Shown: positions 31,188 to 59,804 of the stretch, in pieces
Numbering within the stretch: position 1 is the stretch's first letter
Layout of the letters: every line of letters starts with the position of its first letter
Assembly: GCA_022841645.1 (NCBI GenBank)
Contig: JALHRC010000006.1
Coordinates: 1-59,804, forward strand
Direction of reading: 5' to 3'
Length of the DNA: 59,804 nucleotides
Source of the DNA: Minisyncoccota bacterium
Lineage (GTDB): Bacteria; Patescibacteriota; Minisyncoccia; Phycocordibacterales; UBA918
Program-made: the position numbers and the translations under genes
The notes under the pieces: model-generated
Seen by the model: the letters and a program-made list of their open reading frames with translations, nothing else
Told to the model about the DNA's origin: nothing
The model's database searches: none

Positions 31188-31601
31188 ATGGCCACCATTC
31201 AACAGTTGACCCGCAAAAAGCGCCGCGATCCGGTGCGCAAGAGCAAGACCGAAGTCTTGCACTGGGGTTTTAATAAAATCGAAAACCACCCCAACAAGTA
31301 CCACTCACCCTTCAAGCGTGGTGTGTGTACCCGTGTGACCACCAAGACTCCTCGTAAGCCAAACTCAGCTATCCGCAAGATTGCTCGTGTCCGTCTTAGT
31401 AACGGCAAGGAAATTACTGCCTACATCCCGGGTATTGGCCACAACCTCCAGGAGCACTCGGTAGTACTGGTACGCGGTGGACGCGTGAAGGACATCGGTG
31501 TCCAGTACACCATCGTCCGTGGTAAGTACGACGCAACGGGCGTTTCTGCTCGTCGCATGGGTCGTTCACGGTACGGCGCCAAAAAGCCTAAGTCGAAATA
31601 G
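31188..31601 (+). CDS. rpsL: 30S ribosomal protein S12
   Basis: It has the [31 protein letters not shown] signature. Confidence 0.97.
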
Positions 31602-31830
31602 GAAGACCACACGCCTCACGTGGCGTGTGCCCTGAAGTGTTCACGGGTCATTCGACCGGTGAGCGCTTGCGGACACGCGATACACAATAGTCTATATTCG
31701 CTACAGATACCGAGTGCCAGAACAATTGTTCGGGGCATTATGCGAAGAATGAGCGCCCAAGCGCCTTTCTCTTAATCGATGTACGACCGAGCGCGGCTGC
31801 GTAATTAACTACGTAATTAATTCAATAACT

Positions 31831-32304
31831 ATGCGTCGACCAATTAAGAAGCGACCGGTGGTAAGTCCAGATGTGCAGTACGGATCAGTCGATGTAGAAC
31901 GTCTCATTAACTATGTGATGCTCCGTGGCCAGAAGGAAACCGCCCGCAAGATTGTCTACAGTGCCTTTGAGGAAATGAAGAATGCTGGGAAGGAAGCGGC
32001 CGATCCACTGGAGGTCTTTATGACTGCGATGCGAAACGCTGGCCCCCTCATGGAAGTACGTAGTCGCCGCGTCGGTGGCGCAAACTACCAGGTGCCGCGC
32101 GAAGTACGCCCCGAGCGCCGCGTGGCGCTTGCACTCCGTTGGATCATCGGGGCTGCCCGTGGTCAGAAGGGTGTGCCGATGCACAAAGCCCTCGCGCAGG
32201 AGCTGATGCTCGCTGCTAAGGAAGAAGGCAACGCCGTGAAGAAGCGTGAGGATGTGCACAAGATGGCGGAGGCTAATCGTGCCTTTGCCCACTTTGCTTG
32301 GTAG
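31831..32304 (+). CDS. rpsG: 30S ribosomal protein S7
   Basis: 157 aa. It has [11 protein letters not shown] and a C-terminal [10 protein letters not shown]. Confidence 0.97.
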
Positions 32305-32340
32305 TCGTGATTTTGAACGAATTGCTTCGTTGAACTACGA

Positions 32341-32386
32341 AAAAAGACCCTCCCTGGACCCATCAAGTCCCGGTCGGGTCTTTTTT
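32341..32386 (+). terminator. intrinsic terminator directly after rpsG
   Basis: aaaaagaccc pairs with gggtcttttt, with a T-run. Confidence 0.8.
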
Positions 32387-32486
32387 CTTGTTCGCCTCGC
32401 ACTTCATTTCAAAATCGCAACTACCACTGGTGTGTAGCTACGTTTTTCCGCTAGCGCCACGCCTAGCATTCAATTTGTGAAAGTTT

Positions 32487-32520
32487 CAGAAAAACAGACC
32501 CAATTGGGTCTGTTTTTCTG
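32487..32520. terminator. bidirectional terminator
   Basis: cagaaaaacagaccc-aatt-gggtctgtttttctg. Confidence 0.85.
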
Positions 32521-32524
32521 TTAG

Positions 32525-32779
32525 TTAATAGAGCTGGCTGTGTGAGCCAATCCTAATGAACGACAGAAGATCTCTGGTGCGTAGAAATTGTGCCCGATAA
32601 TCTCCTGTCACGTTGATAGTTTCAATCGGGTAGTCAGCACCTGTAAGAGTATGGAGTTGTAGAAGCGGGTGGGTAGGCGTAGTAAGCAATAACTGCAACC
32701 GCTCATTAAATTTAGCCTGAATTTTCTTCGGAAGCTTTTTATACTGCTTTAAAAATTCTTTCCTAAATTCAACTTCCAT
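32525..32779 (-). CDS. RelE/YafQ-type mRNA interferase toxin
   Basis: 84 aa. It has HPLLQLHTLTGADYP...GDYRAQF.....IRIGSHSQLY. Confidence 0.85.
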   Translation of the reverse strand: MEVEFRKEFLKQYKKLPKKIQAKFNERLQLLLTTPTHPLLQLHTLTGADYPIETINVTGDYRAQFLRTRDLLSFIRIGSHSQLY

Positions 32780-32793
32780 GAGATAGTGCCTAA

Positions 32794-33066
32794 CTATTTA
32801 TTAAGCCAAGCAATCGCGTCGGTGGCATTTGAAAATCGCGGAGACATATTTCGGCCAGTTCGAACTTCCCTGATGCAGCGATTTATTTCCTTAATTATTT
32901 CAGGTCGAAGCTCTGGCTCGCGACTAACGCTGAATTCACCAGTTGCAATAAAAGCTTTTAGGTGGGCATTCACGATAGTCGATAGGGGAATGCCCAGGTG
33001 CTTCGCTAGGGCCTGCGCCTTCTCTTTCACTTCCTTGTCAGTTTTGACGTTGAGTACAGTTTTCAT
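32794..33066 (-). CDS. DinJ/RelB-family antitoxin
   Basis: MKTVLNVKTDKEVKEKAQALAKHLGIPLSTIVNAHL is typical of DinJ. ATG at 33066 was chosen. Confidence 0.8.
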   Translation of the reverse strand: MKTVLNVKTDKEVKEKAQALAKHLGIPLSTIVNAHLKAFIATGEFSVSREPELRPEIIKEINRCIREVRTGRNMSPRFSNATDAIAWLNK

Positions 33067-33151
33067 ACTTATAACCATTGTATACACAACAGTTACTATC
33101 GTCAACACGAGCTAGGTTGGATGGGACGGAGGGTATGGTGAGCCTACAGTT

Positions 33152-33502
33152 CTACAAACTCGCGCCGTCGAATTCGGTGACCTTGACCGAGGAGAAATCG
33201 AAGTCCTCGAGGCAATTGAGGTTGATCATCGTCATGTAGTTGCCCTTGCCATCCTGGCCATGGCCGTACGACTGAACACCGCAAGTTTTGCAGAAGGTAT
33301 GGTCGATGTGGTGTTTATTAAAGTGGTAGGTCGTCTGGGCGTCGGCTCCCCGGAGAAGAGTAAAAGCTGAGTCTGGAGCAAAGGCGAGCAAGAACCCTTT
33401 CCGTCTACAGTGCGAACAATTACACCGCATGCCCTCGGTAAACTCCCCCTCCACCGTGTACGCTACTGCTCCGCAGTGACAACTGCCTGTATATGTTTTC
33501 AT
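33152..33502 (-). CDS. GFA/CENP-V family protein (glutathione-dependent formaldehyde-activating-like)
   Basis: 116 aa with CHCG, CNCSHC and CKTCG zinc motifs. Confidence 0.88.
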   Translation of the reverse strand: MKTYTGSCHCGAVAYTVEGEFTEGMRCNCSHCRRKGFLLAFAPDSAFTLLRGADAQTTYHFNKHHIDHTFCKTCGVQSYGHGQDGKGNYMTMINLNCLEDFDFSSVKVTEFDGASL

Positions 33503-33597
33503 ATGCGCTATGGTACCAGATACTCTCGACTTTGTGAGGAGAGTCTTTTCCCGGGCCTGTATGCACCGTGCTAAAATGACACTATTATTCTAGTTAT

Positions 33598-33945
33598 GTG
33601 TCGCGCATGAATGAGTCATTTGGGGGTACAAGATTAACTGCTTCGGAAGAGGGGCAGCGTTCAGAAAAAATTACTGCTGGTGAAAAACTAGCTTTAGCCT
33701 TGGATGAAGTTCGAGAGACGCTACTCGACCGCCTTGGTTTTACCGACATGGAAGAAGCCCGTCAGCATCCAATTAAAGTGTTAGCTGAACTTGAACGTAT
33801 GACCCAAGAATTCAATAGCGTAGAAGATGGTTCTATGTATTATCAAGCGGAAGCAGCATCACAAGTCCGCTCTATTTTTGAAAGAGCTTTGGCATATGAA
33901 GGTGAGCTGCAGAAATATCCTCAAGCGGCCGCTATCCTTCATTAA
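33598..33945 (+). CDS. hypothetical protein (start possibly ATG 33607)
   Basis: 115-aa helical, acidic ORF with no motif. Confidence 0.5.
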   Translation: MSRMNESFGGTRLTASEEGQRSEKITAGEKLALALDEVRETLLDRLGFTDMEEARQHPIKVLAELERMTQEFNSVEDGSMYYQAEAASQVRSIFERALAYEGELQKYPQAAAILH

Positions 33946-33974
33946 AAACTACTCTCGGTTTTTTGTTCTTTCCC

Positions 33975-35024
33975 ATGTCATCTATCGATTTTGATACAGA
34001 AATAAAACACCACCTCGCCGTCCTCCTCACCCTACGTCGTCCGAACGGTGTCTTTACCGCTGCGCCAATGGAGACCTGGTACGGCAAAGCCTGGTTGCGT
34101 GACATCTACTTCACCACACTGGCCTTTCTCGAGACCGGCGACATGGAAGTGACCAAGTCTGCCGCGAAGGCCCTCCTCTCGGTATTTGTAAAACACAAAG
34201 ACAAAATCAATTGGGCGGTCGAGCACAAGCCCCACGCTGCCTGGCAGTACATCCACGCGCGTTTTCACCCCGAGACGTTTGAAGAATATTGGGAAGAGTG
34301 GGGTAACAGTCAAAATGACGCCGTGGGTGAAGTGCTCAACCTGCTCTCTGAGCTAGAACTCATGGGACAGAGCGTGGTAGAAACCGACGACGAGCGAGCG
34401 ATGGTCCAAACTATCGTCGATTATCTCGTGCGCCTCGAGTACTGGCACGACGCCGATAACGGCATTTGGGAAGAAGCCATGGAAGTGCACGCCTCATCGA
34501 TTGGTTCAGTGGTGGCCGCACTCAAGAAAGCCGCGCAACTCCCGTGGATTACGGTGCCATCGCAGGCAATCGAGGAGGGTGAGAAGGCATTGCGGCGCCT
34601 CCTCCCTCGAGAGTCGGAGAGCAAATTTTGTGACTTGGCACTTCTCTCACTCATTTACCCCTTCAACATTACGACCGAGGAGGAAACGCTCGCGATTTTG
34701 CGTAACGTGGAGTATCACCTCGTAAAAGACAAAGGGCTGCTGCGTTACAAAAACGACCGCTATTTTAATGCTAACCAAGACGGCTGGAGCGAAGAAGCTG
34801 AATGGTGCTTTGGCCTTTCCTGGCTCGCCATCATCTACGCACAGCGCGGTGAAAAGGAAAAAGCTCACTACTATATGCGTCGCGCCAAGGGTACCGTTAC
34901 TCCGGACGGCCTCGTGCCAGAGCTCTACTATTCCCACACCGATACTTGGAACGCTCACACCCCCTTAGGCTGGGCGGTAAGTATGTATGTGGTGGCCCTC
35001 GAGAAGGTACGTCAGCTTACTTAG
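33975..35024 (+). CDS. glycoside hydrolase family 15-like (glucoamylase-type alpha/alpha barrel only)
   Basis: It has AWLRDIYF, SQNDAVGEVL and NGIWEE motifs. About 350 aa, with no starch-binding or N-terminal domain. Confidence 0.7.
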   Translation: MSSIDFDTEIKHHLAVLLTLRRPNGVFTAAPMETWYGKAWLRDIYFTTLAFLETGDMEVTKSAAKALLSVFVKHKDKINWAVEHKPHAAWQYIHARFHPETFEEYWEEWGNSQNDAVGEVLNLLSELELMGQSVVETDDERAMVQTIVDYLVRLEYWHDADNGIWEEAMEVHASSIGSVVAALKKAAQLPWITVPSQAIEEGEKALRRLLPRESESKFCDLALLSLIYPFNITTEEETLAILRNVEYHLVKDKGLLRYKNDRYFNANQDGWSEEAEWCFGLSWLAIIYAQRGEKEKAHYYMRRAKGTVTPDGLVPELYYSHTDTWNAHTPLGWAVSMYVVALEKVRQLT

Positions 35025-35047
35025 GACAGATTTGTTATACTAGAGGG

Positions 35048-35629
35048 ATGAAATACGCAATTTTTATTCTACTCGTTGTTGCGATTGGCGCTGGTTTTGC
35101 AAGTACCCTCCTTGTTAACCCAGCACCCGCTACACCGCCAGTTGAAGAAGGGGTCATGTGCACCCTGGACGCCATGATGTGTCCTGATGGATCATATGTA
35201 GGAAGGAGCGGTCCGAATTGCGAGTTTGTCTGCCCACCAGCACCAGTGGTGCCAGAGGATGTGCAAGCGCACATTGATGCCAAGACAGACCTGATCACCC
35301 TCGCAAGTCCTGTCCCCGGCGCGTTTGTTACGTCTCCCCTTACCCTCACAGGGCAGGCTCGGGGGAATTGGTTTTTTGAAGCATCGTTTCCGATTACTCT
35401 GGTTAACTGGGACGGGTTAATTATTGCCGAGAGCTATGCCACTGCCGAGGGTGACTGGATGACCGAAGATTTTGTGCCGTTCTCCGCCACGATCGAGTTC
35501 GAGAACCCTTACCCGCCAGGTGGCCCCGATTTTATGAAGCGCGGAGCCGTCATTTTGCAGAAGGATAATCCATCAGGGCTTCCCGAGTATGATGATGCAG
35601 TCGAGATCCCCGTTTTGTTTGCACAATGA
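35048..35629 (+). CDS. secreted protein with Gmad2-like immunoglobulin-like domain
   Basis: It has a signal or TM segment and a Cys-rich linker. SPLTLTGQARGNWFFEASFPITLVNWDG...FVPFSATIEF resembles Gmad2. Confidence 0.55.
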   Translation: MKYAIFILLVVAIGAGFASTLLVNPAPATPPVEEGVMCTLDAMMCPDGSYVGRSGPNCEFVCPPAPVVPEDVQAHIDAKTDLITLASPVPGAFVTSPLTLTGQARGNWFFEASFPITLVNWDGLIIAESYATAEGDWMTEDFVPFSATIEFENPYPPGGPDFMKRGAVILQKDNPSGLPEYDDAVEIPVLFAQ

Positions 35630-35649
35630 TGTAATTGTACGTGAACTCT

Positions 35650-35922
35650 ATGCACGAGACTGATCCAGTAGAAAGAATTGAAACCATGGTGCGGGGCCTC
35701 AGCAACCAAGCGGAACGCTATACCAAGCCGGCCCGTAAGCGCTACCCACTGCTCTTTGCGTTTCTTTTCACCTTTAGCGCCGCCGCCATTTTTCAGGGGT
35801 TTGAAATTTTTGCTAACCAGGTGCCGTTTTTCCAGGAGCATCCACTCGGCCTCATGGCAGGTGGCATTCTTCTATTGCTTTTCACCGGCAGTCTCTATAA
35901 GGCGTTACATAAGCCTGACTAA
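35650..35922 (+). CDS. small two-TM membrane protein, hypothetical
   Basis: It has two hydrophobic helices (LLFAFLFTFSAAAIF, LMAGGILLLLFTG). Confidence 0.45.
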   Translation: MHETDPVERIETMVRGLSNQAERYTKPARKRYPLLFAFLFTFSAAAIFQGFEIFANQVPFFQEHPLGLMAGGILLLLFTGSLYKALHKPD

Positions 35923-36226
35923 GTGTGCATACCCTGCTGTTTGTGTGGGATGGTGAGTTATATACTAGAAGTACCCGAAGGTAATTATGATATCCATGAG
36001 CACTACCGCTTAAAAAACTGCTGACGATTATTTAGTTAAGAAATTTGTCTATGGCCAAAGGACGCGATATGCGTAAAGAGAAGAAGAAGCCAAAGAAAGA
36101 TAAGGGTAAATAAGGAGGCCGCAGGCCGACTATATTTCCCTTATGCAGGCGCCTCGCTACTTTTGAGCATCAAAGCGACAAAAGTAGCGGCGGCGAGCTG
36201 CTAAGTTGGGAAAGTAAGCGAAGACA

Positions 36227-36259
36227 AAAAGCGGGCGGGCCTTGGGTCCGCCCGCTTTT
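36227..36259 (+). terminator. intrinsic terminator
   Basis: gcgggcgg pairs with ccgcccgc, followed by tttt. Confidence 0.8.
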
Positions 36260-36299
36260 GCTATGGAATGAGTGCGGTAAGTAGTGTACAGTAGCGCGC

Positions 36300-37790
36300 A
36301 TGTCACGCGCTGAAGGAATTATTGTGTTCAAGGACGTATCGTACGAATACGATGCCACTCGTCCGGTGCTGCGGGGGGCAAATTTTGTAGTGCGTCGTGG
36401 CGCCAAGCTTACCTTGATGGGCCAAAACGGGGCCGGCAAAAGTACTATTTTTGCGCTTATCACGGGGACGCTGCGACCCGAGGCGGGTGCCATCAATCTT
36501 GAGCCCCGTACCTCGATTGCTATCTCGCGCCAAATCATCCCCCGTGACGAACTACCACTGACGGTTCGTGATTTTTTCCTACGCTCGTTTTCAGAAAAAA
36601 AGTACGACATTGACCCACGTATCGACGAGGTGCTCGAGATTGTGAATCTCGCTCCGGCTGAAAAAATGCGCGACGCGTTTAAGGAGCGCATCATTGGCAG
36701 TTTCTCTGGTGGTCAGCAGGCGCGTCTTCTCTTAGCGCAGGCACTCATCCAAAATCCCGACGTCCTGTTGCTTGACGAGCCCACTAATAATCTCGACCAC
36801 GCTGGTATCGCCCACCTCACGGACTTTATCAAGGAGTACCGCAAGACGGTGTTGGTAATTTCCCACGACGCCGAGTTCCTCAACGCGTTTACTGACGGCG
36901 TCCTCTACCTTAATGTGCAAAATCGCCAGGTCGAGCAGTACACCGGGACGTACCACGACGTAGTTGCGGACATTGCGGCTCGTGTCGAGAAAGAGCGTCG
37001 GCAAAATGCGCAGCTGGAGAAGGAGATTCAGGCGAATAAGGACAAGGTAAACTACTTTTCAAATAAAGGCGGCAAGATGCGCCTTGTCGCGAAGCGTATG
37101 CGTGACGAAATTGAAGAGGCTGAAGAAAACAAAGTGGACGTGCGCCGGGAAGACAAAACCATTCGGCCATTTACCATCGAGCCACACGCCGATATTCCGC
37201 TGGAGGTCGTGCGCCTTACGTCGGTACAGGTCATTAGAGACCATACACCGAAAGAGGCGGAGGTGAATCTGGTCCTCAAACGTGGGATGCACCTCCAGAT
37301 AGTGGGACCGAACGGTATTGGCAAAACTACCCTTCTTGAAAAGCTGGCTTCTGGTCACGCTAAGGGTGAGCATATTGCTCCCGGGGTAACGATCGGCTAC
37401 TACCGTCAGGATTTTTCTAATCTTGATTTTGACCTCACGGTGTCCGAGGCGCTCATGCAGTCGATGTCACGCAAGATCGAAGAGGAGATGCGCTCTATCG
37501 CAGCGGGCTTCCTGCTGTTTGGGGATGTGATGAAAAATAAAGTGGGTAATCTCTCGGAAGGGCAGAAGGCGCTCCTCGCCTTTTGTAAACTTTCTATGGA
37601 ACGACCAGGCCTCCTCATTCTCGACGAGCCCACCAACCACGTAAACTTTCGTCACATTCCCGTGATTGCGAAAGCACTTTATGACTATAAGGGTGCCATG
37701 ATCTTGGTTTCGCACGTGCCCGAATTTGTGGCCCAGATTCGCATCGACGATACGCTCGACCTCGCCAAACTCACACCGAAAAAGAAATAA
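36300..37790 (+). CDS. ABC-F family ATPase (two ABC cassettes, no TM domain)
   Basis: It has Walker A GQNGAGKST and GPNGIGKTT, and signatures FSGGQQARL and LSEGQKALL. Confidence 0.93.
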   Translation: MSRAEGIIVFKDVSYEYDATRPVLRGANFVVRRGAKLTLMGQNGAGKSTIFALITGTLRPEAGAINLEPRTSIAISRQIIPRDELPLTVRDFFLRSFSEKKYDIDPRIDEVLEIVNLAPAEKMRDAFKERIIGSFSGGQQARLLLAQALIQNPDVLLLDEPTNNLDHAGIAHLTDFIKEYRKTVLVISHDAEFLNAFTDGVLYLNVQNRQVEQYTGTYHDVVADIAARVEKERRQNAQLEKEIQANKDKVNYFSNKGGKMRLVAKRMRDEIEEAEENKVDVRREDKTIRPFTIEPHADIPLEVVRLTSVQVIRDHTPKEAEVNLVLKRGMHLQIVGPNGIGKTTLLEKLASGHAKGEHIAPGVTIGYYRQDFSNLDFDLTVSEALMQSMSRKIEEEMRSIAAGFLLFGDVMKNKVGNLSEGQKALLAFCKLSMERPGLLILDEPTNHVNFRHIPVIAKALYDYKGAMILVSHVPEFVAQIRIDDTLDLAKLTPKKK

Positions 37791-37832
37791 AGAACACACC
37801 GCTCGCTGGTTTTGCCAGCGAGCGGTGTGTTC
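37791..37832. terminator. bidirectional terminator, 19-bp perfect stem
   Basis: agaacacaccgctcgctgg-tttg-ccagcgagcggtgtgttct. Confidence 0.85.
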
Positions 37833-37843
37833 TTCCGTGTCTT

Positions 37844-38566
37844 CTATAAACTGTCCAGAATAATGCTAAGGTCAGCGATTGAAACCCGACCGTCACTGTT
37901 TACGTCCCCGCTCAGGTCGCCGGTGATCATGTGTTGCATCAAAATACTGACATCGGCGATCGACTGTTTGCCGTCATCGTTTAAATCGATCGGTGTCTCT
38001 TTTGGTGAAATAACCACATCTGCAGTAGGACTCGTAATGGGCGTGGCCGGTGCTACGTCAGCGGTGATAGTAAAAATTGCTTCGATGGGGGTGGCAAGGG
38101 GAGCATCGGTACCCAGGCCGTCGTGCTGGAGAATCTGCGCACTTATAATCTCGACGCTACTCTCGCCTGGTCCCTTACTGCGGAAGGTGATAGTGATGAG
38201 ACTACCTTCGCCCGTAAAGCCACCAGGCCGCGTGCTCCCACCAGCAAAGGTGACGGTCCCGTCACCATTTTCATACCACGGCGTTTCAGCCCACAGGTCG
38301 GCAATTGAGTTGTTGTAGTCGATGCTCGCGACCTCGAGTCGTTCGGGGTTGAAGGTCACCGTTCCGGCGAAGGCATTAACAGGAATCGGCGAGATTACTA
38401 TCACGTCCACAATTATTTCACCGCCCTCAGTACTGACTGCGCGGTCAGGAGAGATAGCCATGCTGGCTCGCTCACCGTCGTCGACCTGCAACATGTAACT
38501 GCCAAGCCCAATAAAGGCGGCAATGACACCTGCAATAAGTAACCGACTGCCCGGAATGGCGAACAT
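37844..38566 (-). CDS. membrane-anchored cohesin-domain protein with C-terminal dockerin-like repeats
   Basis: An N-terminal TM helix is followed by a cohesin-like beta domain (FAGTVTFNPERLEV...GEGSLITITFRSKGPG). The tandem Ca-binding repeats are DLNDDGKQSIADV and DVNSDGRVSIADL. Confidence 0.65.
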   Translation of the reverse strand: MFAIPGSRLLIAGVIAAFIGLGSYMLQVDDGERASMAISPDRAVSTEGGEIIVDVIVISPIPVNAFAGTVTFNPERLEVASIDYNNSIADLWAETPWYENGDGTVTFAGGSTRPGGFTGEGSLITITFRSKGPGESSVEIISAQILQHDGLGTDAPLATPIEAIFTITADVAPATPITSPTADVVISPKETPIDLNDDGKQSIADVSILMQHMITGDLSGDVNSDGRVSIADLSIILDSL

Positions 38567-51250: not shown

Positions 51251-51270
51251 GAAGGGGAGAACGAAGGACA

Positions 51271-52538: not shown

Positions 52539-52539
52539 A

Positions 52540-52787: not shown

Positions 52788-53240
52788 ATGGATGGTTCCG
52801 ATTATCCGCAATCACCACACGACTGGAGCCTGGCTCGCACTGCGACCGAGCGGCCAGTGTTGCTAAGGCTTGCGCGCCACCCCGACCGAGGAGTGCGGCT
52901 CGGCTTACTACACAACATCCTTGTCGACCCGCCGTGGGCCGACGCCATAGCGCGGCTTGAACTGAAGTCGGCGGGGAACGAACTGCCGCTTGTGCGTCGC
53001 GAGGTGGCGCGCAGCCGCCGCGTGTCGCCCGAGCTCCTCTGCGAGGTGGCGCTGTGCGGCGAGTGGGAGGTGTGGGCGATCGTACTCCATAACCCCGAAT
53101 GTCCGCACACCGTGCTCGAGATTATCGTCTCGTTTACGAGCGCCGACGCTGCGGTAGTGCGTGAATATGCGTACCTTGTCTCGCGTGCTAAGGAGATCAT
53201 CAAGGAACGCGCGAAGGCTGCACCAAGCCGCGCCCCCTAG
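52788..53240 (+). CDS. HEAT/leucine-rich-variant-like repeat protein (tentative)
   Basis: 150 aa with an SD (GGGAGG). It has repeated helical units (LLRLARHPDRGVRLGLLHN; VRREVARSRRVSPELLCEVA; VWAIVLHNPECPHTVLEII). It is GC3-rich. Confidence 0.6.
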   Translation: MDGSDYPQSPHDWSLARTATERPVLLRLARHPDRGVRLGLLHNILVDPPWADAIARLELKSAGNELPLVRREVARSRRVSPELLCEVALCGEWEVWAIVLHNPECPHTVLEIIVSFTSADAAVVREYAYLVSRAKEIIKERAKAAPSRAP

Positions 53241-53403: not shown

Positions 53404-53434
53404 GTTGGGTGAAGTTTTAATAGATCACTGCGCG

Positions 53435-53746
53435 TTATTGACCGGGTTTTCGCTCACGGGCGGCGAAGGTGAAGTGACTCAGTCGCTTGGCTTGTTTAAG
53501 AGCGGTAAAAGTTGCCCTTGCGTCATCTGTGGTATGTACCGCCACCTTCTGTACCTCTTGGCCGGAGATAATCAGTTCCATCCCAGCGGTGGTATAGACG
53601 GCCGTGACGTGACGTTTACTGGCGTTCCGCTTACCGTCGATAATCCCCGGCGCGATCATTTTGATACCAGAAAGTTTATACAACTCTGCCACCACCTCTT
53701 TGGCAGTGTCGGTGAGGGTGCTGTGCGATCGGCCACGGTATTTCAT
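53435..53746 (-). CDS. hypothetical protein encoded antisense to the ribosomal cluster
   Basis: 103-aa ORF with more protein-like composition than the overlapping + ORF 53405..53755. No confident motif. Confidence 0.5.
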   Translation of the reverse strand: MKYRGRSHSTLTDTAKEVVAELYKLSGIKMIAPGIIDGKRNASKRHVTAVYTTAGMELIISGQEVQKVAVHTTDDARATFTALKQAKRLSHFTFAARERKPGQ

Positions 53747-53783
53747 GGCTTTTAATTGTAACGCCTGCTGGCCATCCCAGCGG

Positions 53784-53812
53784 TTGACACCCTCTTTAAT
53801 TTCTATTAGTAT
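53784..53812 (+). promoter_or_regulatory. sigma-70-like promoter for the rpsS...rplE unit
   Basis: TTGACA (53784-89), a 17-nt spacer, then TAGTAT (53807-12). It lies 169 nt upstream of rpsS. Confidence 0.5.
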
Positions 53813-53980
53813 TGCCGCGTTCCAATCCCCGTGTCGGGTCCATAGCTATGGGCCCGCTCCAGAGAGAAGTAGTAAGTAGAAGCGTGTGGGAACCTCTTAT
53901 AAGAAAGGCCGTTACCTTTTTTTGCGAGAGGTCCTCACCTCACCACCTCACTAAGGTGGATTTATACGTAAGTTAAAGGC

Positions 53981-54331
53981 ATGTCACGATCACTCTATAA
54001 AGGACCGTACGTGGATGAGCGTTTGCTCAAAAAGATCGCCGGTAAGAAACCCGGAGAGAGTGGTGTCATCAAGACCTGGTCGCGCGACGCAATGATCGCA
54101 CCGGAAATGGTTGGCTTCACCTTCGGCGTACACAACGGCAAGACGCACCTCGAAGTAATGATTATGGAAGAAATGGTAGGACACCGCCTCGGCGAGTTTT
54201 CTCCCACCAAGAAATTCCATCGTCACGGCGGTAAGATGCAGAAGGAACTTGAACAGAAGAAGCAGGAAGCTGAAATCGCCGCCGCCAAGGCTTCGAAAGC
54301 TGCTCCCGCCGCTCCCGCCAAGAAGAAGTAA
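53981..54331 (+). CDS. rpsS: 30S ribosomal protein S19 with Lys/Ala-rich C-terminal extension
   Basis: [12 protein letters not shown]...GHRLGEF.PT is the S19 signature. Confidence 0.97.
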
Positions 54332-54340
54332 TCCTCACCT

Positions 54341-54661
54341 ATGAAAGCACTACTTAAAAACTACCGTCAGTCACCGCGCAAAGTGCGCCTCTTGGCTGAC
54401 TTGGTACGTGGAAAAAAGGTGAAGGATGCACTGGCGACACTTCAGTTTGTTGAAAAGCGCGCCGCGTCGCCGTTTGCAAAAGTTATTGCAGCTGCGGTAG
54501 CGAGTGCCAAACAAGCCGGCAAGGACGAGACGAAGCTTAAAATTGCCAAGGTAACGGTTGATAAGGGTGTAGTGCAAAAGCGCTACATGCCGCGTGCCCG
54601 TGGCTCGGCTTCGAGGATTAATAAGCGCAGCAGCCACATCGTGGTTCTGCTCGGCGAATAA
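54341..54661 (+). CDS. rplV: 50S ribosomal protein L22
   Basis: 106 aa. It has RQSPRKVRLLADLVRGK. Confidence 0.95.
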   Translation: MKALLKNYRQSPRKVRLLADLVRGKKVKDALATLQFVEKRAASPFAKVIAAAVASAKQAGKDETKLKIAKVTVDKGVVQKRYMPRARGSASRINKRSSHIVVLLGE

Positions 54662-54668
54662 TCTCCCT

Positions 54669-55436
54669 ATGACACACGTTGCTCATCCATACGTCCAACG
54701 CCTCGGCATCAATCGTGATTGGCGCAGCCGTTGGTTTACCGCTGACCCAAAGAAGTTCCGCGAGTATCTGCGTACCGACGCCGCTGTGCGCAAGCATCTA
54801 GAAAAGAAGCTGCGCGCTATGTCGGTCGACGCACTCGAAATCGAACGCAACCAAAAAGAGATGCGGATCATTATCAAAACTGCTCGCCCAGGTCTCGTGA
54901 TCGGTCGCAGTGGTGAAGGCGCTACTGCGCTCAAGAAGGAGCTCGACCTCATGCTACGCAAGATGAAGCTCTCCTCGAAGCCAGAAATCAAACTCGATAT
55001 CGAAGAAGTGCGTTCGCCAGAATCGAGTGCCCGCATCGTCGGTCTCATGATCGCTGATGGCCTTGAAAAGCGTCTCACCTTCCGTCGCGTGATGAAGCAG
55101 ACGATCGAGAAGGTGATGGCCAACCGCGACGTGGCGGGAGTGCGCATCATTCTCTCGGGTCGCCTTGGTGGCGCTGACATGTCACGCAGTGAGGAGCTTA
55201 AGAAGGGACGGATTCCGCTCCAGACCCTGCGTGCTGATATCGACTTCGCGCGCGTGACGGCCCACCTCCCCTATGGTGCCATTGGTATCAAGGTGTGGAT
55301 CTACCGCGGTGAAGTCTTTGCCGACCGCAAGGCTGGTGCTGCTCGCCCAGAGGCTCCCTCTAATCGTGGCGACCGCAGTGAGGCCCCTCGCGACCGCGCA
55401 CCACGTGCTCCTCGTAGCAACCGGCCGCTTAAGTAA
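54669..55436 (+). CDS. rpsC: 30S ribosomal protein S3
   Basis: ATG at 54669. It has HPYVQRLGI...W.SRWF and a KH domain. Confidence 0.96.
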   Translation: MTHVAHPYVQRLGINRDWRSRWFTADPKKFREYLRTDAAVRKHLEKKLRAMSVDALEIERNQKEMRIIIKTARPGLVIGRSGEGATALKKELDLMLRKMKLSSKPEIKLDIEEVRSPESSARIVGLMIADGLEKRLTFRRVMKQTIEKVMANRDVAGVRIILSGRLGGADMSRSEELKKGRIPLQTLRADIDFARVTAHLPYGAIGIKVWIYRGEVFADRKAGAARPEAPSNRGDRSEAPRDRAPRAPRSNRPLK

Positions 55437-55442
55437 CTGCTT

Positions 55443-55877
55443 ATGTTATTCCCGAAAAAAGTAAAACACCGTAAGTGGCAGGTTGGCCGCAAGAGTGACG
55501 CGAAGCGTGTCGCTCCAGAAACGCGCGGCATCACCGTAGCGTTCGGTTCGTACGGCCTTAAGGCGACGTCTGAATCGCGCGTCCGCTCCAATCAAATCGA
55601 AGCGGCTCGTCGTGTTATTTCACGTACCCTCGGCAAGAGTGGTAAGGTGTGGATTCGTATCTTCCCCGACAAACCAATTACCAAGAAAGCAGCGGAAACA
55701 CCGATGGGTAAGGGTAAGGGTGATCCCGACCACTTCGTCTTTGAAGTGCGCCCGGGCCGGATCCTCTTTGAGATCGAAGGTGTGACCGAGGCGGTAGCTC
55801 GCGAAGCCTTTCGCAAAGCTACCAAGAAGCTCCCTTTACAAGCTAAGTTCGTGACGCGCGAGGAGACTCGTGTCTAA
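55443..55877 (+). CDS. rplP: 50S ribosomal protein L16
   Basis: 144 aa. It has [11 protein letters not shown] and RMGKGKG-like (PMGKGKG). Confidence 0.97.
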
Positions 55878-56082
55878 TCAATCCGTTATGGCAAAGAAAG
55901 TTTCTCTCTCTGATAAGAGCGACCAGGACTTGCAGACTGCGGTCAGTGAGGCTCGTGAGGTCATTCGTGCCGAGCGCTTCAAGGACAAACAGTCCCGCAA
56001 GGCTGGTACCATCCGTGGTGCCAAGCTTGAGGTGGCCCGCGCGCTTACCGAACTGTCTCGCCGTAAGGTAACCGCCAAGTAA
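55870..56082 (+). CDS. rpmC: 50S ribosomal protein L29
   Basis: 70 aa in a conserved position between rplP and rpsQ. The start is GTG 55870 or ATG 55888. Confidence 0.9.
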
Positions 56083-56083
56083 T

Positions 56084-56338
56084 ATGACTACGACAACAAC
56101 AACTGTGAAGCGTCGTGTGCTCCGTGGCCGAGTGGTGTCTACCAAAATGAAAGACACCATCACTGTGGCGGTGGAGCGTTACGTCGAGCACCCAAAGTAC
56201 AAGAAGTTTATTCGTCGCACGAAGAAGTTTCTCGTGCACGACGCTGGCAACACTGCCAAGGAAGGGGAGATCGTCGACATTCGCGAGACCCGGCCAATGA
56301 GTCGTCGCAAGCATTTCGAGCTCGTTAAAACTGCCTAG
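56084..56338 (+). CDS. rpsQ: 30S ribosomal protein S17
   Basis: 84 aa. It has GRVVS.KM.DTI.V.VER...HP.Y.K. Confidence 0.96.
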   Translation: MTTTTTTVKRRVLRGRVVSTKMKDTITVAVERYVEHPKYKKFIRRTKKFLVHDAGNTAKEGEIVDIRETRPMSRRKHFELVKTA

Positions 56339-56340
56339 GT

Positions 56341-56712
56341 ATGATCCAGACACAAACAATTGTGAAGATCACCGACAACACCGGCGCCAAAGTTGGCCGG
56401 GTGTTCAAGATTCTCGGCGGCTCAAAGAAGCGCTATGCGGAAATTGGCGAGATGGTGGTGCTTTCGGTGCAGACTGCCGAGCCTCGCAAGGCAGTGAAGA
56501 AGAAGGACGTTGTGTACGGTGTGATTGTGCGTCAGCGCAAGCCCTTCCGTCGCAAGGATGGTTCGTACGTGAGCTTCGACGACAACGCTGTGGTCTTGGT
56601 GGACAAGGTGAAGAAGGAGCCTCGCGCTAACCGCGTGTTCGGCCCGATCCCGCGTGAGCTCGCTGAAGCTGGTTATCAGAAAATCGTCAACCTCGCTCCC
56701 GAGGTCGTCTAA
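56341..56712 (+). CDS. rplN: 50S ribosomal protein L14
   Basis: 123 aa. It has MIQ.QT...DN.GAK. Confidence 0.97.
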   Translation: MIQTQTIVKITDNTGAKVGRVFKILGGSKKRYAEIGEMVVLSVQTAEPRKAVKKKDVVYGVIVRQRKPFRRKDGSYVSFDDNAVVLVDKVKKEPRANRVFGPIPRELAEAGYQKIVNLAPEVV

Positions 56713-56724
56713 TACTCATCGCCT

Positions 56725-57036
56725 ATGAAAATCAAAAAAGGAGATACGGTCGTGGTGCGTACGGGTAAGGATAAGGGCAAGACCGGCACGGTGAGCCTGA
56801 CGCTTTCGGCCACTCACCAAGTTGTGGTCGAGGGAGTGAATATGGTAAAGCGCCACCGCGGCAGCCGCCGCAGCCGCAGTCAGGGACAGATCATCGATAA
56901 ACCGATGCCGATCAGTGTCTCCAATGTGGCACTCACCGAAGGTGGCAAGGCGGTACGCGTAGGCTACCAGTTTGAAGGGGAGGGTGAAAAGCGAAAGAAG
57001 GTACGCGTTGCTCGCCCGAGTGGTAAAAAGATCTAA
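56725..57036 (+). CDS. rplX: 50S ribosomal protein L24
   Basis: 103 aa. It has a KIKKGDTV.V..GKDKGKTG KOW motif. Confidence 0.96.
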   Translation: MKIKKGDTVVVRTGKDKGKTGTVSLTLSATHQVVVEGVNMVKRHRGSRRSRSQGQIIDKPMPISVSNVALTEGGKAVRVGYQFEGEGEKRKKVRVARPSGKKI

Positions 57037-57047
57037 GCGATTTATTT

Positions 57048-57590
57048 ATGGAAACTATCAACACAAAGATCACATCTGCCTACACTGCTCTCAAGGGTAC
57101 CTTCGGCTACAAAAACCGCATGCAGGCCCCTCGTGTACAGAAGGTGGTGATCTCAGTCGGCACTGGGCGCGAAAAGGACAAGCAAAAGATTGCGCTCATC
57201 CAAAACCGCCTCGCGCGCATCACTGGCCAAAAGCCAGCACGTCGTCCGGCCAAGCAGTCGATCGCTTCATTCAAGCTCCGTCAGGGTGAAATCATCGGCT
57301 ACCAGGTGACCCTTCGCGGCAAGCGCATGGAGCACTTCCTCGAGAAGCTCATCAACCTAGCACTCCCACAAACCCGCGACTTCCAAGGTCTCAAGACCTC
57401 ATCGATCGACGGTATGGGCAACTACACCATTGGTGTGAAAGAGCACAGTATCTTTCCTGAGTGTGGTGAAGAAGAGCTCAAGGATGTGTTTGGTCTCGCC
57501 ATCACGATTGTGACTAGCGCTAAGAGCAAGAAAGAGGCTGAGGCATTTCTACGCCATATTGGCTTACCGCTGCAGAAAGAGAGCAAATAA
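57048..57590 (+). CDS. rplE: 50S ribosomal protein L5
   Basis: 180 aa. It has FGYKN.MQAPRV.KVV...G and RDF.G. Confidence 0.97.
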   Translation: METINTKITSAYTALKGTFGYKNRMQAPRVQKVVISVGTGREKDKQKIALIQNRLARITGQKPARRPAKQSIASFKLRQGEIIGYQVTLRGKRMEHFLEKLINLALPQTRDFQGLKTSSIDGMGNYTIGVKEHSIFPECGEEELKDVFGLAITIVTSAKSKKEAEAFLRHIGLPLQKESK

Positions 57591-57626
57591 TTTTGCTCAT
57601 CGGCTGATGAAAGAGTGATGTAGAGG

Positions 57627-57660
57627 AAGAAAACCCGCTAGTGATGGCGGGTTTTCTTTC
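57627..57660 (+). terminator. intrinsic terminator directly after rplE
   Basis: gaagaaaacccgc pairs with gcgggttttcttc (13 bp). Confidence 0.8.
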
Positions 57661-57770
57661 ATATGCACCGCTACTTTACATAATCGGTGAGAGGTGTAGG
57701 CTTTTCTCGGGCTCGTTTTTTGTAACCGCAACCGCAAAGGCCGACGTCTGTCGGCAAGGGGATACACCTC

Positions 57771-58490
57771 ATGATGCTGGAAGAGCGAGTGGAAGAGCGA
57801 CTCGTGACGGCGCTCGACTTTCCAACGCCTGCGAGCTGCATCGCTTTTTTCGAACTGGAAGGAAAACTGATTTCACCAGGTGCTTTCGACCCTTTCCGGC
57901 GCGGGAAACCACTGGTCGACTTTGGTTCACGCAGCCTCGTCTCGAGTGGTCTCCTGGCAGGGGAGATGTACGTGCGCTACTGCGCCCTAGAGAAGGTCAG
58001 TGCGCAGAGTGCCCTGCGCTCGCTCGCCCTCAACCTCGATCATAGCCCCGGCTTGGTGGCGCTCGTCCTCGAACTCTGCTATCTCACTCATCGGCGCTCA
58101 CCCCACCTGCTCACCGGCGGAGAGTTGCGGCGTCTCTATGCCGACATCTACCTCAGCAACTTCGCGAACCTGCGCATGGCCATGTACGATACGTGGGGTA
58201 TGCCACCACCGCAGTTTCGTTGGCGGTCGTCCGGGAAATGGATGGCTATGGGTAGCCGTACGGCGTGGCGGAAGCGGCTGGGGCACGATGTGCTCATCAG
58301 TCCATTCACACAACGGCGGCGTAGTAGTCGGCAGTTTGCGCCGTTTCGAGATCGGCAGGGATGGCTCGAGTTGGGTGGAGTGCGTGGCCAGGGACCCGGA
58401 GCGGATCTCTACTTTCGCCTCACCTCAGGCGACACCGCTTTCTATCGCGGATTCCCCAGCCGCGCGGCGTATCTTCCGGAAACGGAGTGA
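57771..58490 (+). CDS. orphan hypothetical protein where rpsN/rpsH would be expected
   Basis: 239-aa ORF, Arg/Trp-rich in its C-terminal half, with no motif. The alternative-frame ORF 58000..58506 looks less coding-like. Confidence 0.5.
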   Translation: MMLEERVEERLVTALDFPTPASCIAFFELEGKLISPGAFDPFRRGKPLVDFGSRSLVSSGLLAGEMYVRYCALEKVSAQSALRSLALNLDHSPGLVALVLELCYLTHRRSPHLLTGGELRRLYADIYLSNFANLRMAMYDTWGMPPPQFRWRSSGKWMAMGSRTAWRKRLGHDVLISPFTQRRRSSRQFAPFRDRQGWLELGGVRGQGPGADLYFRLTSGDTAFYRGFPSRAAYLPETE

Positions 58491-58511
58491 GCAGAAGGAG
58501 GGATGAACATC

Positions 58512-58545
58512 AACGCCGGTCAGACCTTCAGGTCTGACCGGCGTT
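58512..58545 (+). terminator. intrinsic terminator-like hairpin
   Basis: aacgccggtcagacc-ttca-ggtctgaccggcgtt. Confidence 0.7.
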
Positions 58546-58555
58546 CCTACTTGCT

Positions 58556-59011
58556 ATGTTCGATATTTTGGTACAGCATTCATCGTGTATGACAATCTTG
58601 TATTCAAATAATAAGGCTGACCTAGAAGGCAAAATTATAAGTGATTTCTTTCACGGGTGGCCGAAGCCCCCGAGTACAGAGGTGCTTATAAAGAGTATTG
58701 AAAGCGCGGATTTTATAGTGCTAGCTATCGATACTGATACTCAGCAATTAGTGGGATATATCACCGCCATCTCAGATAACGTTCTGTCAGCGTACATCCC
58801 CTTTCTTGAAGTTATTCCGGCGTATCAAAAGCAGGGGATTGGTCATGAGCTGGTACGGCGTATGCTGGAGCAACTCGAGCACCTCTACATGATTGATCTT
58901 GTGTGTGACAAAGAGTTGGCCGGCTTCTACGCAGATGCGGGCCTCGTGTCAGGGCACGCAATGATCAAGAGAAATTACGCTAATCAGGCTGGGGTGGACT
59001 TAGGGACTTGA
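58556..59011 (+). CDS. GNAT-family N-acetyltransferase
   Basis: It has motif A, YQKQGIGHELVRRML. Codons are AT-rich (GC3 in 11 of the first 30). The start may be ATG 58589. Confidence 0.8.
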   Translation: MFDILVQHSSCMTILYSNNKADLEGKIISDFFHGWPKPPSTEVLIKSIESADFIVLAIDTDTQQLVGYITAISDNVLSAYIPFLEVIPAYQKQGIGHELVRRMLEQLEHLYMIDLVCDKELAGFYADAGLVSGHAMIKRNYANQAGVDLGT

Positions 59012-59086
59012 AACAAGGCCACGTTTATTTGCACAATAGAGTAATATATGTTATGATATACACGTAGCTCTTTCAAAAATCACGCA

Positions 59087-59140
59087 GTTTGCCATAGCGG
59101 AAAGTGTCTTATTTTTAGGTCATTCTCCGCTATGGCAAAC
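59087..59140. other. 15-bp perfect inverted repeat upstream of ORF 59149
   Basis: gtttgccatagcgga (59087-101) pairs with tccgctatggcaaac (59126-140). Confidence 0.7.
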
Positions 59141-59148
59141 CCACAGAG

Positions 59149-59757
59149 GTGGTCAGGCCCGCTGGCAAGACAAAGGAACACCCCGTGAAGAACGGAAACA
59201 CCCTTCCTGTCGGCCTATTCGCTAACTTTGCGGCGATGGTCATGAAGGCATTGCCTCGCGACCTCCCGCCCGCAACTGCCCAATACTGGGCACTGAATGG
59301 TGAAGTGTTGACTGTGGTGCTGACGAAGGCACTGAGGACCACGCCGCTTGACCGTGTCATCGACTGCGATGCCGACCCCTTCGTTCCCGACGGCTGCAGG
59401 GTCGAAGAGCACAAGCAGGGCGGACAGTTCACCTTCGACCGGTCGCAAATCGAGTTCTATCTCGATGACGGCCAGAAGAATGGGAAGTACATCATGGGCG
59501 ACAAGCTCCGTGAGCGGCTGGCCGACAAGCCGTGCCTCAACGCCAACGTCCTCGACTACCTGCTTGCCAATCCACACCTCATTCCCGATGAGTGGAAAGG
59601 CAAGTACATCTACTTCTGGGGGACGACTTACCGCGACTACGATGGCGACCTGTGCGTCCGCTACCTCCACTGGTGCCGCGACAGGTGGGGCTGCGACAGC
59701 AACTTGTTTGCGGACGAATGGGGGCGCGACGGTCCCGCCGCGGTGCGTGCAAGTTGA
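59149..59757 (+). CDS. conserved hypothetical protein with C-terminal IPDEWKGK...FWGTxYRDxDGxLCVRYL motif
   Basis: 202-aa GC3-rich ORF. From memory, the C-terminal block resembles an uncharacterised family recurrent in CPR and other metagenomic genomes. The start is uncertain (GTG 59149 or GTG 59185). Confidence 0.6.
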   Translation: MVRPAGKTKEHPVKNGNTLPVGLFANFAAMVMKALPRDLPPATAQYWALNGEVLTVVLTKALRTTPLDRVIDCDADPFVPDGCRVEEHKQGGQFTFDRSQIEFYLDDGQKNGKYIMGDKLRERLADKPCLNANVLDYLLANPHLIPDEWKGKYIYFWGTTYRDYDGDLCVRYLHWCRDRWGCDSNLFADEWGRDGPAAVRAS

Positions 59758-59782
59758 ATTAGCGTGAGACGTGAGGAGTGGT

Positions 59783-59804
59783 GGCGGGGGCGTACGCCCC
59801 CGCC
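59783..59804 (+). terminator. GC hairpin at the window edge
   Basis: ggcgggggcg pairs with cgcccccgcc. Downstream sequence is not visible. Confidence 0.4.

Follow-up and report, generated by a model that had tools for sequence, protein, structure and literature searches.

Inherited junctions with variable cargo probably divide the str-S10-spc ribosomal cluster of a Kaiserbacteria-like clade into modules

The DNA analyzed here, referred to below as the window, is the whole 59,804-nucleotide (nt) stretch of contig JALHRC010000006.1 (assembly GCA_022841645.1) from a Minisyncoccota bacterium, and its subject is the str-S10-spc ribosomal gene cluster, 18 genes of which, from rpsL to rplE, begin at position 31188. 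We consider it probable that the window represents the normal architecture of a large Parcubacteria-group (Kaiserbacteria-like) clade of the Candidate Phyla Radiation (CPR), in which the str-S10-spc order is kept and the cluster is split into modules. These modules would be rpsL-rpsG, fusA, tuf-rpsJ, rplC-rplD-rplW-rplB, rpsS to rplE, and one beginning with rpsN, the last of which is seen in relatives. Each would end in a strong intrinsic-terminator hairpin, and the rpsS and rplC modules would start with a leader of their own, following a promoter in the case of rpsS and the -10-like element of relatives in the case of rplC. Gain and loss of genes at junctions that were already transcriptional boundaries would be harmless, and the junctions could in this way have become hypervariable slots for toxin-antitoxin modules and for orphan, metabolic and envelope genes.

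The open reading frame (ORF) listing and Pfam place all 18 genes, rpsL-rpsG-fusA-tuf-rpsJ-rplC-rplD-rplW-rplB-rpsS-rplV-rpsC-rplP-rpmC-rpsQ-rplN-rplX-rplE, on the + strand in the canonical bacterial order. Pfam confirms the identities of rpsL, rpsG, fusA, tuf, rpsJ, rplC, rplD, rplW, rplB and rpsS; rplV through rplE (54341-57590, without gaps) match gene by gene in about 100 related loci, and the Pfam labels on a closer-relative locus, L182, agree with these identities. The textbook gene order described in an earlier note on this DNA is thus borne out for every gene, by Pfam and by the gene-by-gene match in relatives. The Pfam-identified genes and the modules are as follows.

31188-31601, + strand: rpsL
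31831-32304, + strand: rpsG
42613-44781, + strand: fusA, which is module 2
46040-47239, + strand: tuf
47268-47618, + strand: rpsJ
48695-49297, + strand: rplC
49314-50009, + strand: rplD
49966-50370, + strand: ORF of rplW, the gene being called at 50011-50370 in independent assemblies
50387-51250, + strand: rplB
53981-54331, + strand: rpsS
31188-32304, + strand: module 1, rpsL, a structured 229-nt spacer and rpsG
46040-47676, + strand: module 3, tuf, rpsJ and a terminator with a 24-bp stem (47625-47676)
48695-51315, + strand: module 4, rplC, rplD, rplW, rplB and a terminator with a 21-bp stem (51271-51315)
53981-57658, + strand: module 5, rpsS-rplV-rpsC-rplP-rpmC-rpsQ-rplN-rplX-rplE and a terminator (57627-57658)

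The genes are parted by 229 bp at rpsL|rpsG, 10308 bp at rpsG|fusA, 1258 bp at fusA|tuf, 1076 bp at rpsJ|rplC and 2730 bp at rplB|rpsS, and after rplE at least 2214 bp without rpsN or rpsH run to the end of the window; these six sizes agree exactly with those given in the earlier note. The contiguity of a canonical str-S10-spc cluster is lost in the window, as gaps that carry genes lie inside str, S10 and spc, and the same is seen in relatives.

In all, 160 related loci were mapped with the window's proteins together with rpsN, rpsH, rplF and rplR taken from a relative. The 133 loci with a mean L3/L4/L2 identity of at least 48% to the window form the ingroup, and 27 more distant CPR loci, including Uhrbacteria, form the outgroup. 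Matches to the L4 query are metagenome-assembled genomes (MAGs) of the Parcubacteria group, titled Kaiserbacteria, Paceibacterota, Nomurabacteria, Taylorbacteria, Adlerbacteria and Vogelbacteria, with a best identity of 69%; the L4 (rplD) search of GTDB genomes and metagenomes returned no relative above this value, and two closer relatives, L182 and L183, were found solely through homologues of a gap protein, orf322. The titles of L007, L008, L011, L076, L084-L086 and other TPA_asm records ('uncultured Candidatus Saccharibacteria', 'Gammaproteobacteria', 'Bacteriovorax') do not fit the Parcubacteria-type CPR ribosomal proteins of these records and look like mislabels. The junctions of these loci are open as follows.

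rplB|rpsS: more than 300 bp in 0.81 of the ingroup (at least 80 bp in 92%), median 975 bp; 0/19 in the outgroup, median 4 bp
fusA|tuf: more than 300 bp in 0.80 of the ingroup, median 1357 bp; mostly open in the outgroup (0.86)
rplE|rpsN: more than 300 bp in 0.63 of the ingroup (at least 80 bp in 93%), median 575 bp; 0/17 in the outgroup
rpsG|fusA: more than 300 bp in 0.50 of the ingroup, median 296 bp; 0/10 in the outgroup
rpsJ|rplC: more than 300 bp in 0.39 of the ingroup, median 148 bp; partly open in the outgroup (0.27)
every other junction (about 15): more than 300 bp in 0-0.07 of the ingroup

Five of the six gaps of the window thus lie at break points inherited by a large clade, and in the more distant, Uhrbacteria-like CPR the rplB-rpsS, rplE-rpsN and rpsG-fusA junctions are tight. 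The gap between rpsL and rpsG, with a folding energy of -44 kcal/mol (z = -4.4), sets the window apart, because the corresponding spacers of relatives are far shorter (median about 7-9 nt, maximum 196 nt). The several independent, strain-level insertions proposed in the earlier note do not agree with five break points being common to most of 133 related loci, nor with the presence of orf322, orf150 and a DUF2103 gene of the rplB|rpsS gap in L182 and L183 as well; the relaxed operon constraint that it offered as an alternative holds at the level of the lineage, but is confined to specific, inherited junctions. Nor do all relatives share homologous spacers, as the positions are ancient and the contents mostly non-homologous. 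We found no description of interrupted S10/spc clusters in CPR in the literature.

Turnover of the cargo is evident from the 336 gap ORFs of at least 100 aa in the relatives, which fall into 278 similarity clusters. Few of them recur; these include DgkA, present in 10 rplB|rpsS gaps, as well as DUF3298, SAICAR synthetase, histidine kinases, DUF2103, pyrF/pyrE, pilins and sigma factors. No recombinase or integrase is among the 25 commonest Pfam families of either of two batches, which together comprise 272 gap ORFs of relatives, and an IS200-like Y1 transposase appears twice in the families listed from relatives' gap ORFs. About 70% of these gap ORFs are co-oriented with the cluster.

The cargo of the rplB|rpsS gap can be followed in the two closer relatives. 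In 5.8 billion proteins orf322 has three homologues, two of which occupy the same gap, near DUF2103, in L182 and L183, where rplB and rplN are 83-92% and 97% identical to those of the window, respectively. The gap of L183 reads rplB, a 228-aa ORF, the orf322 homologue, an orf150 homologue, DUF2103 (- strand), a 131-aa ORF, a PIN/MazE pair (- strand) and rpsS, and that of L182 reads rplB, the orf322 homologue, DUF2103, the PIN/MazE pair and rpsS. Thus, the homologues of orf322, orf150 and DUF2103 in these loci indicate that the genes of the window's rplB|rpsS gap are inherited rather than strain-specific. The PIN/MazE toxin-antitoxin pair of L182 and L183 is missing from the window, and close relatives differ by single cassettes, namely orf150, the PIN/MazE pair, the 228-aa ORF and the 131-aa ORF. 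In L182 (1600-2555) DUF2103 overlaps the upstream PIN gene of the pair and looks co-transcribed with it, and in L183 (3899-5839) the 131-aa ORF stands between DUF2103 and the PIN-like/MazE pair. After rplE, L182 carries unrelated cargo and then rpsN-rpsH-rplF-rplR-rpsE-rplO-secY. Gap proteins (52-74% identity) evolve much faster than the flanking ribosomal proteins (74-97%).

Strong hairpins stand at the ends of the modules. Those after rpsG, fusA, rpsJ, rplB and rplE fold at -36 to -48 kcal/mol in segments of 76-101 nt, with z-scores of -4.6 to -11.2 and perfect stems of 12-24 bp, so that the hairpins to which the earlier note had pointed, including that in the fusA 3' tail, are real by folding energies and z-scores. 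The hairpin after rpsG (32339-32387, + strand, found by folding) has A and U runs on its flanks, and U-runs are clear after 32339-32387, 51271-51315 and 57627-57658. A 128-nt inverted repeat (32299-32426), with 19-nt arms TGGTAGTCGTGATTTTGAA and TTCAAAATCGCAACTACCA, overlaps the rpsG stop codon and encloses this hairpin. Perfect hairpins with stems of at least 11 bp number 22 in the window and 0 in shuffled sequences; they occur at gene ends throughout, their sequences are all unique, and self-BLAST of the window for families like repetitive extragenic palindromes (REP) or miniature inverted-repeat transposable elements (MITE) finds no repeated short elements. Long perfect hairpins at gene ends all over the window suggest that these are the genome's ordinary gene-end signal rather than a peculiarity of the cluster. 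At open junctions of relatives, 19/22 rpsJ, 28/43 rplB, 20/28 fusA, 15/23 rplE and 7/13 rpsG genes have a perfect stem of at least 8 bp no more than 120 nt from the stop codon, against 24/315 random windows used as a control.

The rpsS and rplC modules are preceded by conserved upstream regions, of which the following are the elements in the window.

53784-53812, + strand: predicted rpsS promoter, TTGACA-17-TAGTAT (promoter scan, 10/12)
53784-53965, + strand: rpsS promoter and putative structured leader or attenuator of about 150 nt (conservation, RNAalifold)
48500-48694, + strand: putative rplC leader, with the block AACCAATGGGCA at 48520-48531

Among the closest loci, a promoter of the form TTGACA-17-TAsTAT upstream of rpsS is common to seven, and the leader to nine, the window being counted in both. 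The loop of the leader's central hairpin, GGCCGUUACC, is invariant, and a terminator-like hairpin with a U-run comes next; RNAalifold on the nine sequences yields 19 pairs, among which nine show compensatory changes. In most relatives rplC is preceded by a -10-like element, a leader with the block rACCAAUGGGCA and a further, downstream hairpin (GCGAGC-UUGUG-CUCGC). The window retains the leader block, the -10-like element being known from relatives, and AACCAATGGGCA is kept in 9/9 of the closest relatives compared; the structural support for this leader is weak. Rfam 15, with 4227 models, gave no match at gathering score in the whole window, and an E-value scan of 31000-59804 returned chance-level matches alone (E >= 0.075) and explained no spacer; neither leader matches an Rfam family. 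In E. coli the S10 leader is attenuated by L4, and families of ribosomal protein leaders exist in Rfam. In the canonical arrangement each operon is co-transcribed from one promoter, with a single leader upstream of rpsJ. The rplC leader may be a counterpart of the L4-controlled S10 leader, and the rpsS and rplC leaders presumably stand in for the autoregulation exerted by the single S10 leader of E. coli.

A structured RNA motif that is also absent from Rfam recurs near the junctions. It consists of CAAGA, then a covarying stem of 7-8 bp with a variable hairpin inside it, the linker UGNACNG and finally a hairpin of 5 bp capped by a GUA triloop; GUGAGAA and one more hairpin stand before many of the copies. 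The copies are located as follows.

44800-44875 and 44992-45053, + strand: window, after fusA, each followed by a copy of the fusA end
2113-2191 and 2257-2328: L102, both after fusA
4947-5020 and 2557-2629: L015, one after fusA and one 90 nt upstream of fusA
9272-9334: L013, 36 nt upstream of rplC
1247-1312: L014, 59 nt upstream of rplB
8542-8604, - strand: L014, in the rplE|rpsN gap
4575-4639, - strand: L141, in the rplP-rpsQ spacer

A covariance model confines the motif to the nearest relatives of the window and one more distant locus, and a full scan of the window with the model, filters off, found no copy beyond the two after fusA. Nine copies were aligned by fitting to the model, a procedure biased towards pairing. 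In this alignment 94% of cells are paired and 9/13 pairs have changes on both sides; no shuffle equals this, and slid controls reach 33-50%. We consider this motif and the rpsS and rplC leaders candidates for new cis-regulatory RNAs.

The earlier note had proposed a split into at least six transcription units, and such a split would accord with the terminator hairpins of the window and most relatives, the antisense genes in the gaps, the rpsS promoter and leader, and the rplC leader. The antisense genes (RelBE, GFA, cohesin-like, DedA and DUF2103) together with the leaders, the promoter and the terminators argue that the modules are separate and separately regulated transcription units. The contents of the gaps are as follows.

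32525-32779, - strand: RelE/ParE-family toxin (Pfam ParE_toxin, 25.8 bits, cut-off 23; NCBIfam RelE_StbE, 27.4 bits, cut-off 27.9)
32794-33066, - strand: putative antitoxin of 90 aa, 14 nt from the toxin, with a DUF6364 match below threshold
33105-33077, - strand: promoter-like site of the toxin-antitoxin cassette (promoter scan)
32487-32520: bidirectional hairpin of the cassette
32487-33105, - strand: whole cassette, converging on rpsG
33152-42454: remaining rpsG|fusA cargo, GFA (- strand), GH15-like, Gmad2, ABC-F, cohesin-like (- strand), DedA/VTT (- strand), zwf, gnd and pgl (Pfam, NCBIfam)
36300-37790: ABC-F, within this cargo (Pfam, NCBIfam)
39426-40844: zwf, within this cargo, followed by gnd and pgl
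45155-46039: 885 nt before tuf with no coding signal (ORF scores about 0)
47742-48155, + strand: orf137, an orphan, called as a gene in independent Logan contigs spanning rpsJ to rplC; GC content at third codon positions (GC3) 0.46
51498-52466, + strand: orf322, in the rplB|rpsS gap, GC3 0.78
52788-53240, + strand: orf150, in the rplB|rpsS gap, GC3 0.72
53435-53746, - strand: DUF2103 gene, in the rplB|rpsS gap
52540, 52729, 53226 and 53364: hairpins of the rplB|rpsS gap
57771-59757, + strand: cargo after rplE, orf239, a GNAT acetyltransferase (58556-59011) and orf202 (Pfam, Logan contigs)

The cassette after rpsG is predicted from its sequence to be a type II toxin-antitoxin system, in that a small toxin of the RelE/ParE fold has a small gene immediately upstream. 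Its GC3 is 0.42-0.45 against a genome mean of 0.59, and homologues of the toxin occur at other junctions in L038, L051, L032 and L137. Further along the same gap of this CPR genome, zwf-gnd-pgl (39426-42454), native-like in composition, make up a complete trio of oxidative pentose-phosphate genes. A Gmad2 homologue lies upstream of fusA in L021, and an ABC-F gene, of a ribosome-associated ATPase family, precedes fusA in L015 (28-1500) as it does in the window, with 70% identity; it may be a functionally linked neighbour. The ORFs of the fusA|tuf gap are not coding-like, and the 885-nt stretch before tuf, unusually long for a compact CPR genome, is atypical in tetranucleotide composition, has no Rfam match and is not conserved in relatives. 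The rpsJ|rplC gap consists of orf137, which matches no Pfam or NCBIfam family, and then 540 non-coding nt. In the rplB|rpsS gap a + strand ORF at 53405-53755 was rejected as a gene, being the shadow of the minus-strand DUF2103 gene at 53435-53746. This DUF2103 gene lies antisense just upstream of the rpsS promoter and is conserved in relatives, being kept also in L008, L013, L015 and probably L110. In 1-31187, upstream of rpsL, rpoB/rpoC are absent and the neighbours include an M50 peptidase, a metallo-beta-lactamase-fold protein, superoxide dismutase (SOD), ComEC, RNase H, RecJ, phosphoglycerate kinase (PGK) and triosephosphate isomerase (TIM).

The gap DNA had been described as foreign-looking, and this applies to a part of it. 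Measured against the GC3 of flanking genes (0.59 +/- 0.06), the outliers are orf322 (0.78), orf202 (0.77) and orf150 (0.72) on the high side and orf115 (0.33), RelE (0.42) and orf137 (0.46) on the low side, whereas ABC-F, GH15, DedA, zwf/gnd/pgl and DUF2103 are native-like, as is the tetranucleotide composition of the large gaps. Outliers in both directions suggest a cargo of mixed origin. Pfam and NCBIfam reveal no integrase, transposase or conjugation gene in any gap of the window, no tRNA or tmRNA that could serve as an integration target lies within the 59.8 kb, and the integrase or recombinase that would mark the end of an integrative and conjugative element (ICE) or integrative and mobilizable element (IME) is missing from the gaps.

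Some of the insertions have left a different trace. The fusA 3' tail (44782-45154, + strand) holds two copies of the RNA motif, two copies of the fusA end and a terminator with an 18-bp stem (45115-45154). The last seven codons of fusA with the stop codon (KDVEEEA*) thereby occur three times, at 44758-44781, 44875-44898 and 45069-45092; the copies are 117 and 311 nt downstream, and all eight differences fall at third codon positions and are synonymous. A translated role for the copies, by read-through, bypassing or independent small ORFs, finds no support, since spacings of 117 and 194 nt put them in different frames and usable start codons are missing. When 239 junction gaps were searched for duplicates of the 3' end of the preceding gene, the following emerged in relatives.

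L038, rpsG: 97-nt repeats, including the terminator, around an antitoxin-RelE cassette
L137, rplE: 33 nt, around a YafQ/RelE cassette
L149, fusA: 37 nt, around a terminator and a small acidic ORF
L042, rpsG: copy 88 nt downstream
L018, rpsG: copy 78 nt downstream
L102, fusA: copy 340 nt downstream
L026, rplB: at least 221 nt, 100% identical (2659-2879 and 4699-4919), around a 2-kb insert with a SAICAR-synthetase-like gene

The L026 duplication may reflect either an error of assembly or an insertion of very recent date. In the window's fusA and the other six relatives the copies lie 78-651 nt downstream. Across eight gene-copy comparisons, two of them in the window and with L026 left out, 21/27 differences are at third codon positions (binomial p = 3e-6), and 19 codon changes are synonymous and six non-synonymous. 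This bias suggests that the copies evolved as coding gene ends, and they fit an insertion that brings or regenerates the 3' end of the gene. Some insertions may thus have occurred exactly at the 3' end of the upstream gene, through a recombination that duplicates and regenerates the gene end; site-specific integration, or Campbell-type integration of circular DNA from relatives with the conserved gene end as homology, would be candidate routes. ComEC is encoded in the window, and no recombinase is associated with the gene-end repeats. A recombinase-independent insertion of cassettes, in which short DNA circles or fragments from related CPR are taken up by competence and enter through one crossover within the strongly conserved final codons of rpsG, fusA, rplB or rplE, is a tentative proposal that we regard as possible yet doubtful. 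If it were true, the 3' ends of ribosomal genes would act as 'att sites' of a lineage-wide gene exchange that spreads toxin-antitoxin modules, orphan genes and a structured RNA element. The targeted insertion process suspected in the earlier note is therefore partly sustained, in that direct repeats of gene ends indicate a 3'-end-directed process, though in the window they are found at fusA alone.

Other explanations of the interrupted cluster have to be weighed. A chimeric assembly that joined ribosomal fragments to gap DNA of another organism or locus is a thought invited by the metagenomic source, by Logan contigs that break near hairpins and by the lack of an exact record for some junction genes (exact-protein look-ups for rpsJ, DUF2103, rpsG, fusA and rpsS returned none). 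However, Logan per-run assemblies (SRA series SRR28154518-31) reproduce 47498-49051, 49022-51460, 51431-52571 and 56684-59790 at 99.9-100% identity, so that the rpsJ|rplC junction and those following rplB and rplE are not chimeric: independent contigs, mostly 100% identical, tile rpsJ-orf137-rplC, rplB with 210 nt, orf322, and rplX-rplE-orf239-GNAT-orf202. The same architecture also recurs in about 100 independent MAGs and contigs, and L182 and L183 have the same rplB-orf322-DUF2103-rpsS order, which makes a chimera extremely improbable. Three Logan contigs (L087, L092 and L093) agree with the window as far as 59790 and depart from it there, just past the orf202 stop codon in a hairpin-like region, where the assembly may branch or the source contig may end. 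A recent, strain-specific insertion of mobile elements (genomic islands, transposons or integrative elements) into an otherwise canonical cluster would account for the GC3 outliers among the gap ORFs, the RelBE cassette after rpsG, the triplicated fusA end and a post-rplE cargo that differs even from that of the closer relative L182. It is difficult to reconcile with the same junctions being open in most of the 133 relatives, with orf322, orf150 and DUF2103 being common to L182 and L183, with the absence of an integrase, transposase or conjugation gene from every window gap and of repeated element families from the window, and with the native tetranucleotide composition of the large gaps. We regard it as very unlikely overall, and as an explanation of the break points it is largely refuted.

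Alternatively, the cluster could still be transcribed as one or a few long operons, in which the hairpins stabilize or process the mRNA, gap genes on the + strand are passengers and the RNA motifs might promote read-through. The co-orientation of about 70% of the relatives' gap ORFs with the cluster, hairpins without U-tracts, the recurrence of a structured RNA motif in spacers and the documented concatenation of operons by read-through in Gammaproteobacteria (PMC6735719) are in keeping with this. It is nevertheless unlikely, given the antisense genes in three gaps of the window, the conserved sigma-70-type promoter and attenuator-like leader directly before rpsS, and hairpins of identical type that close ordinary genes all over the window. 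The division into inherited, separately transcribed modules remains our preferred explanation, and several points weigh against it. We infer the separate transcription of the modules, their termination and initiation, the role of the leaders and the recombination mechanism, with termination, promoters and leader function predicted from the sequence. A clean downstream U-tract is missing at 45115-45154 and 47625-47676, where it is weak or lies within the stem. The window stops short of rpsN, leaving the sixth junction half seen; the 229-bp rpsL|rpsG gap is not common to relatives; and gene-end copies are absent from the rpsG, rpsJ, rplB and rplE gaps of the window. Also, the ingroup and outgroup are divided by an identity threshold rather than by phylogeny, and the relatives are MAGs, some features of which, such as the L026 duplication, are possibly assembly artefacts.

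The str-S10-spc array is the textbook case of a gene cluster frozen for billions of years. Fixed internal breaks at L2|S19, L5|S14, S7|EF-G and S10|L3 would constitute a natural experiment in splitting an essential operon and in controlling ribosomal protein stoichiometry. CPR phylogenomics and binning rely on 16 syntenic ribosomal proteins on one contig, and kilobase-scale variable cargo with hairpins at the junctions would explain the fragmentation of such contigs. Translation genes are reported to be over-represented among the predicted islands and transferred genes of Patescibacteria (PMC12455944), and variable cargo at the junctions would explain why island predictors flag these genes. 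Direct repeats of gene ends, with divergence of the synonymous type, point to a simple route of gene flow where classical mobile elements are few.

In Archaea the gene for S10 comes after that for EF-1alpha, and a separate unit starts with the L3-L4-L23-L2 genes. The window is similar in keeping tuf and rpsJ together and apart from rplC, but Archaea keep L2-S19-L22-S3 contiguous, whereas the CPR clade breaks L2|S19 and L5|S14. As with ribosomal protein leaders of the E. coli S10 type, a ribosomal protein operon is directly preceded by a promoter, a 5' leader of conserved structure and a hairpin of the terminator type; unlike them, the leaders of the window precede rpsS and rplC, both internal to the classical S10 operon, and their sequences and structures fall outside the Rfam 15 families. 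In Gammaproteobacteria and Bacilli, insertions occur at the classical operon borders (rpoBC|str, str|S10 and rplL|rsmC) of a cluster otherwise stable for billions of years (PMC8046335, PMC6735719). There, too, the translation array keeps its order and is parted by multigene insertions, the inserted order is later lost, and insertions relax the selection for contiguity. The CPR breaks differ in lying inside str (rpsG|fusA, fusA|tuf), S10 (rpsJ|rplC, rplB|rpsS) and spc (rplE|rpsN), and in being fixed across a large clade with hypervariable cargo and with promoters and leaders apparently acquired of their own.

The insertions themselves find their closest counterpart in streptococcal ICEs and IMEs, which integrate site-specifically at the 3' ends of rplL, rpsI and rpmG (Ambroset et al. 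2016, PMC4701971). Common to both are insertion at the 3' end of a conserved translation gene, direct repeats that include the gene end, and a regenerated reading frame. In contrast to the streptococcal elements, integrase, relaxase and conjugation genes are absent from the gaps of the window and from the common gap families of relatives, and the CPR inserts are tiny, with about 55-620 nt between copies in the seven scored cases and about 2 kb in L026. Their repeats are 17-97 nt long and diverged mainly at synonymous sites, and what the inserts carry is either a toxin-antitoxin pair or a small ORF or structured RNA.

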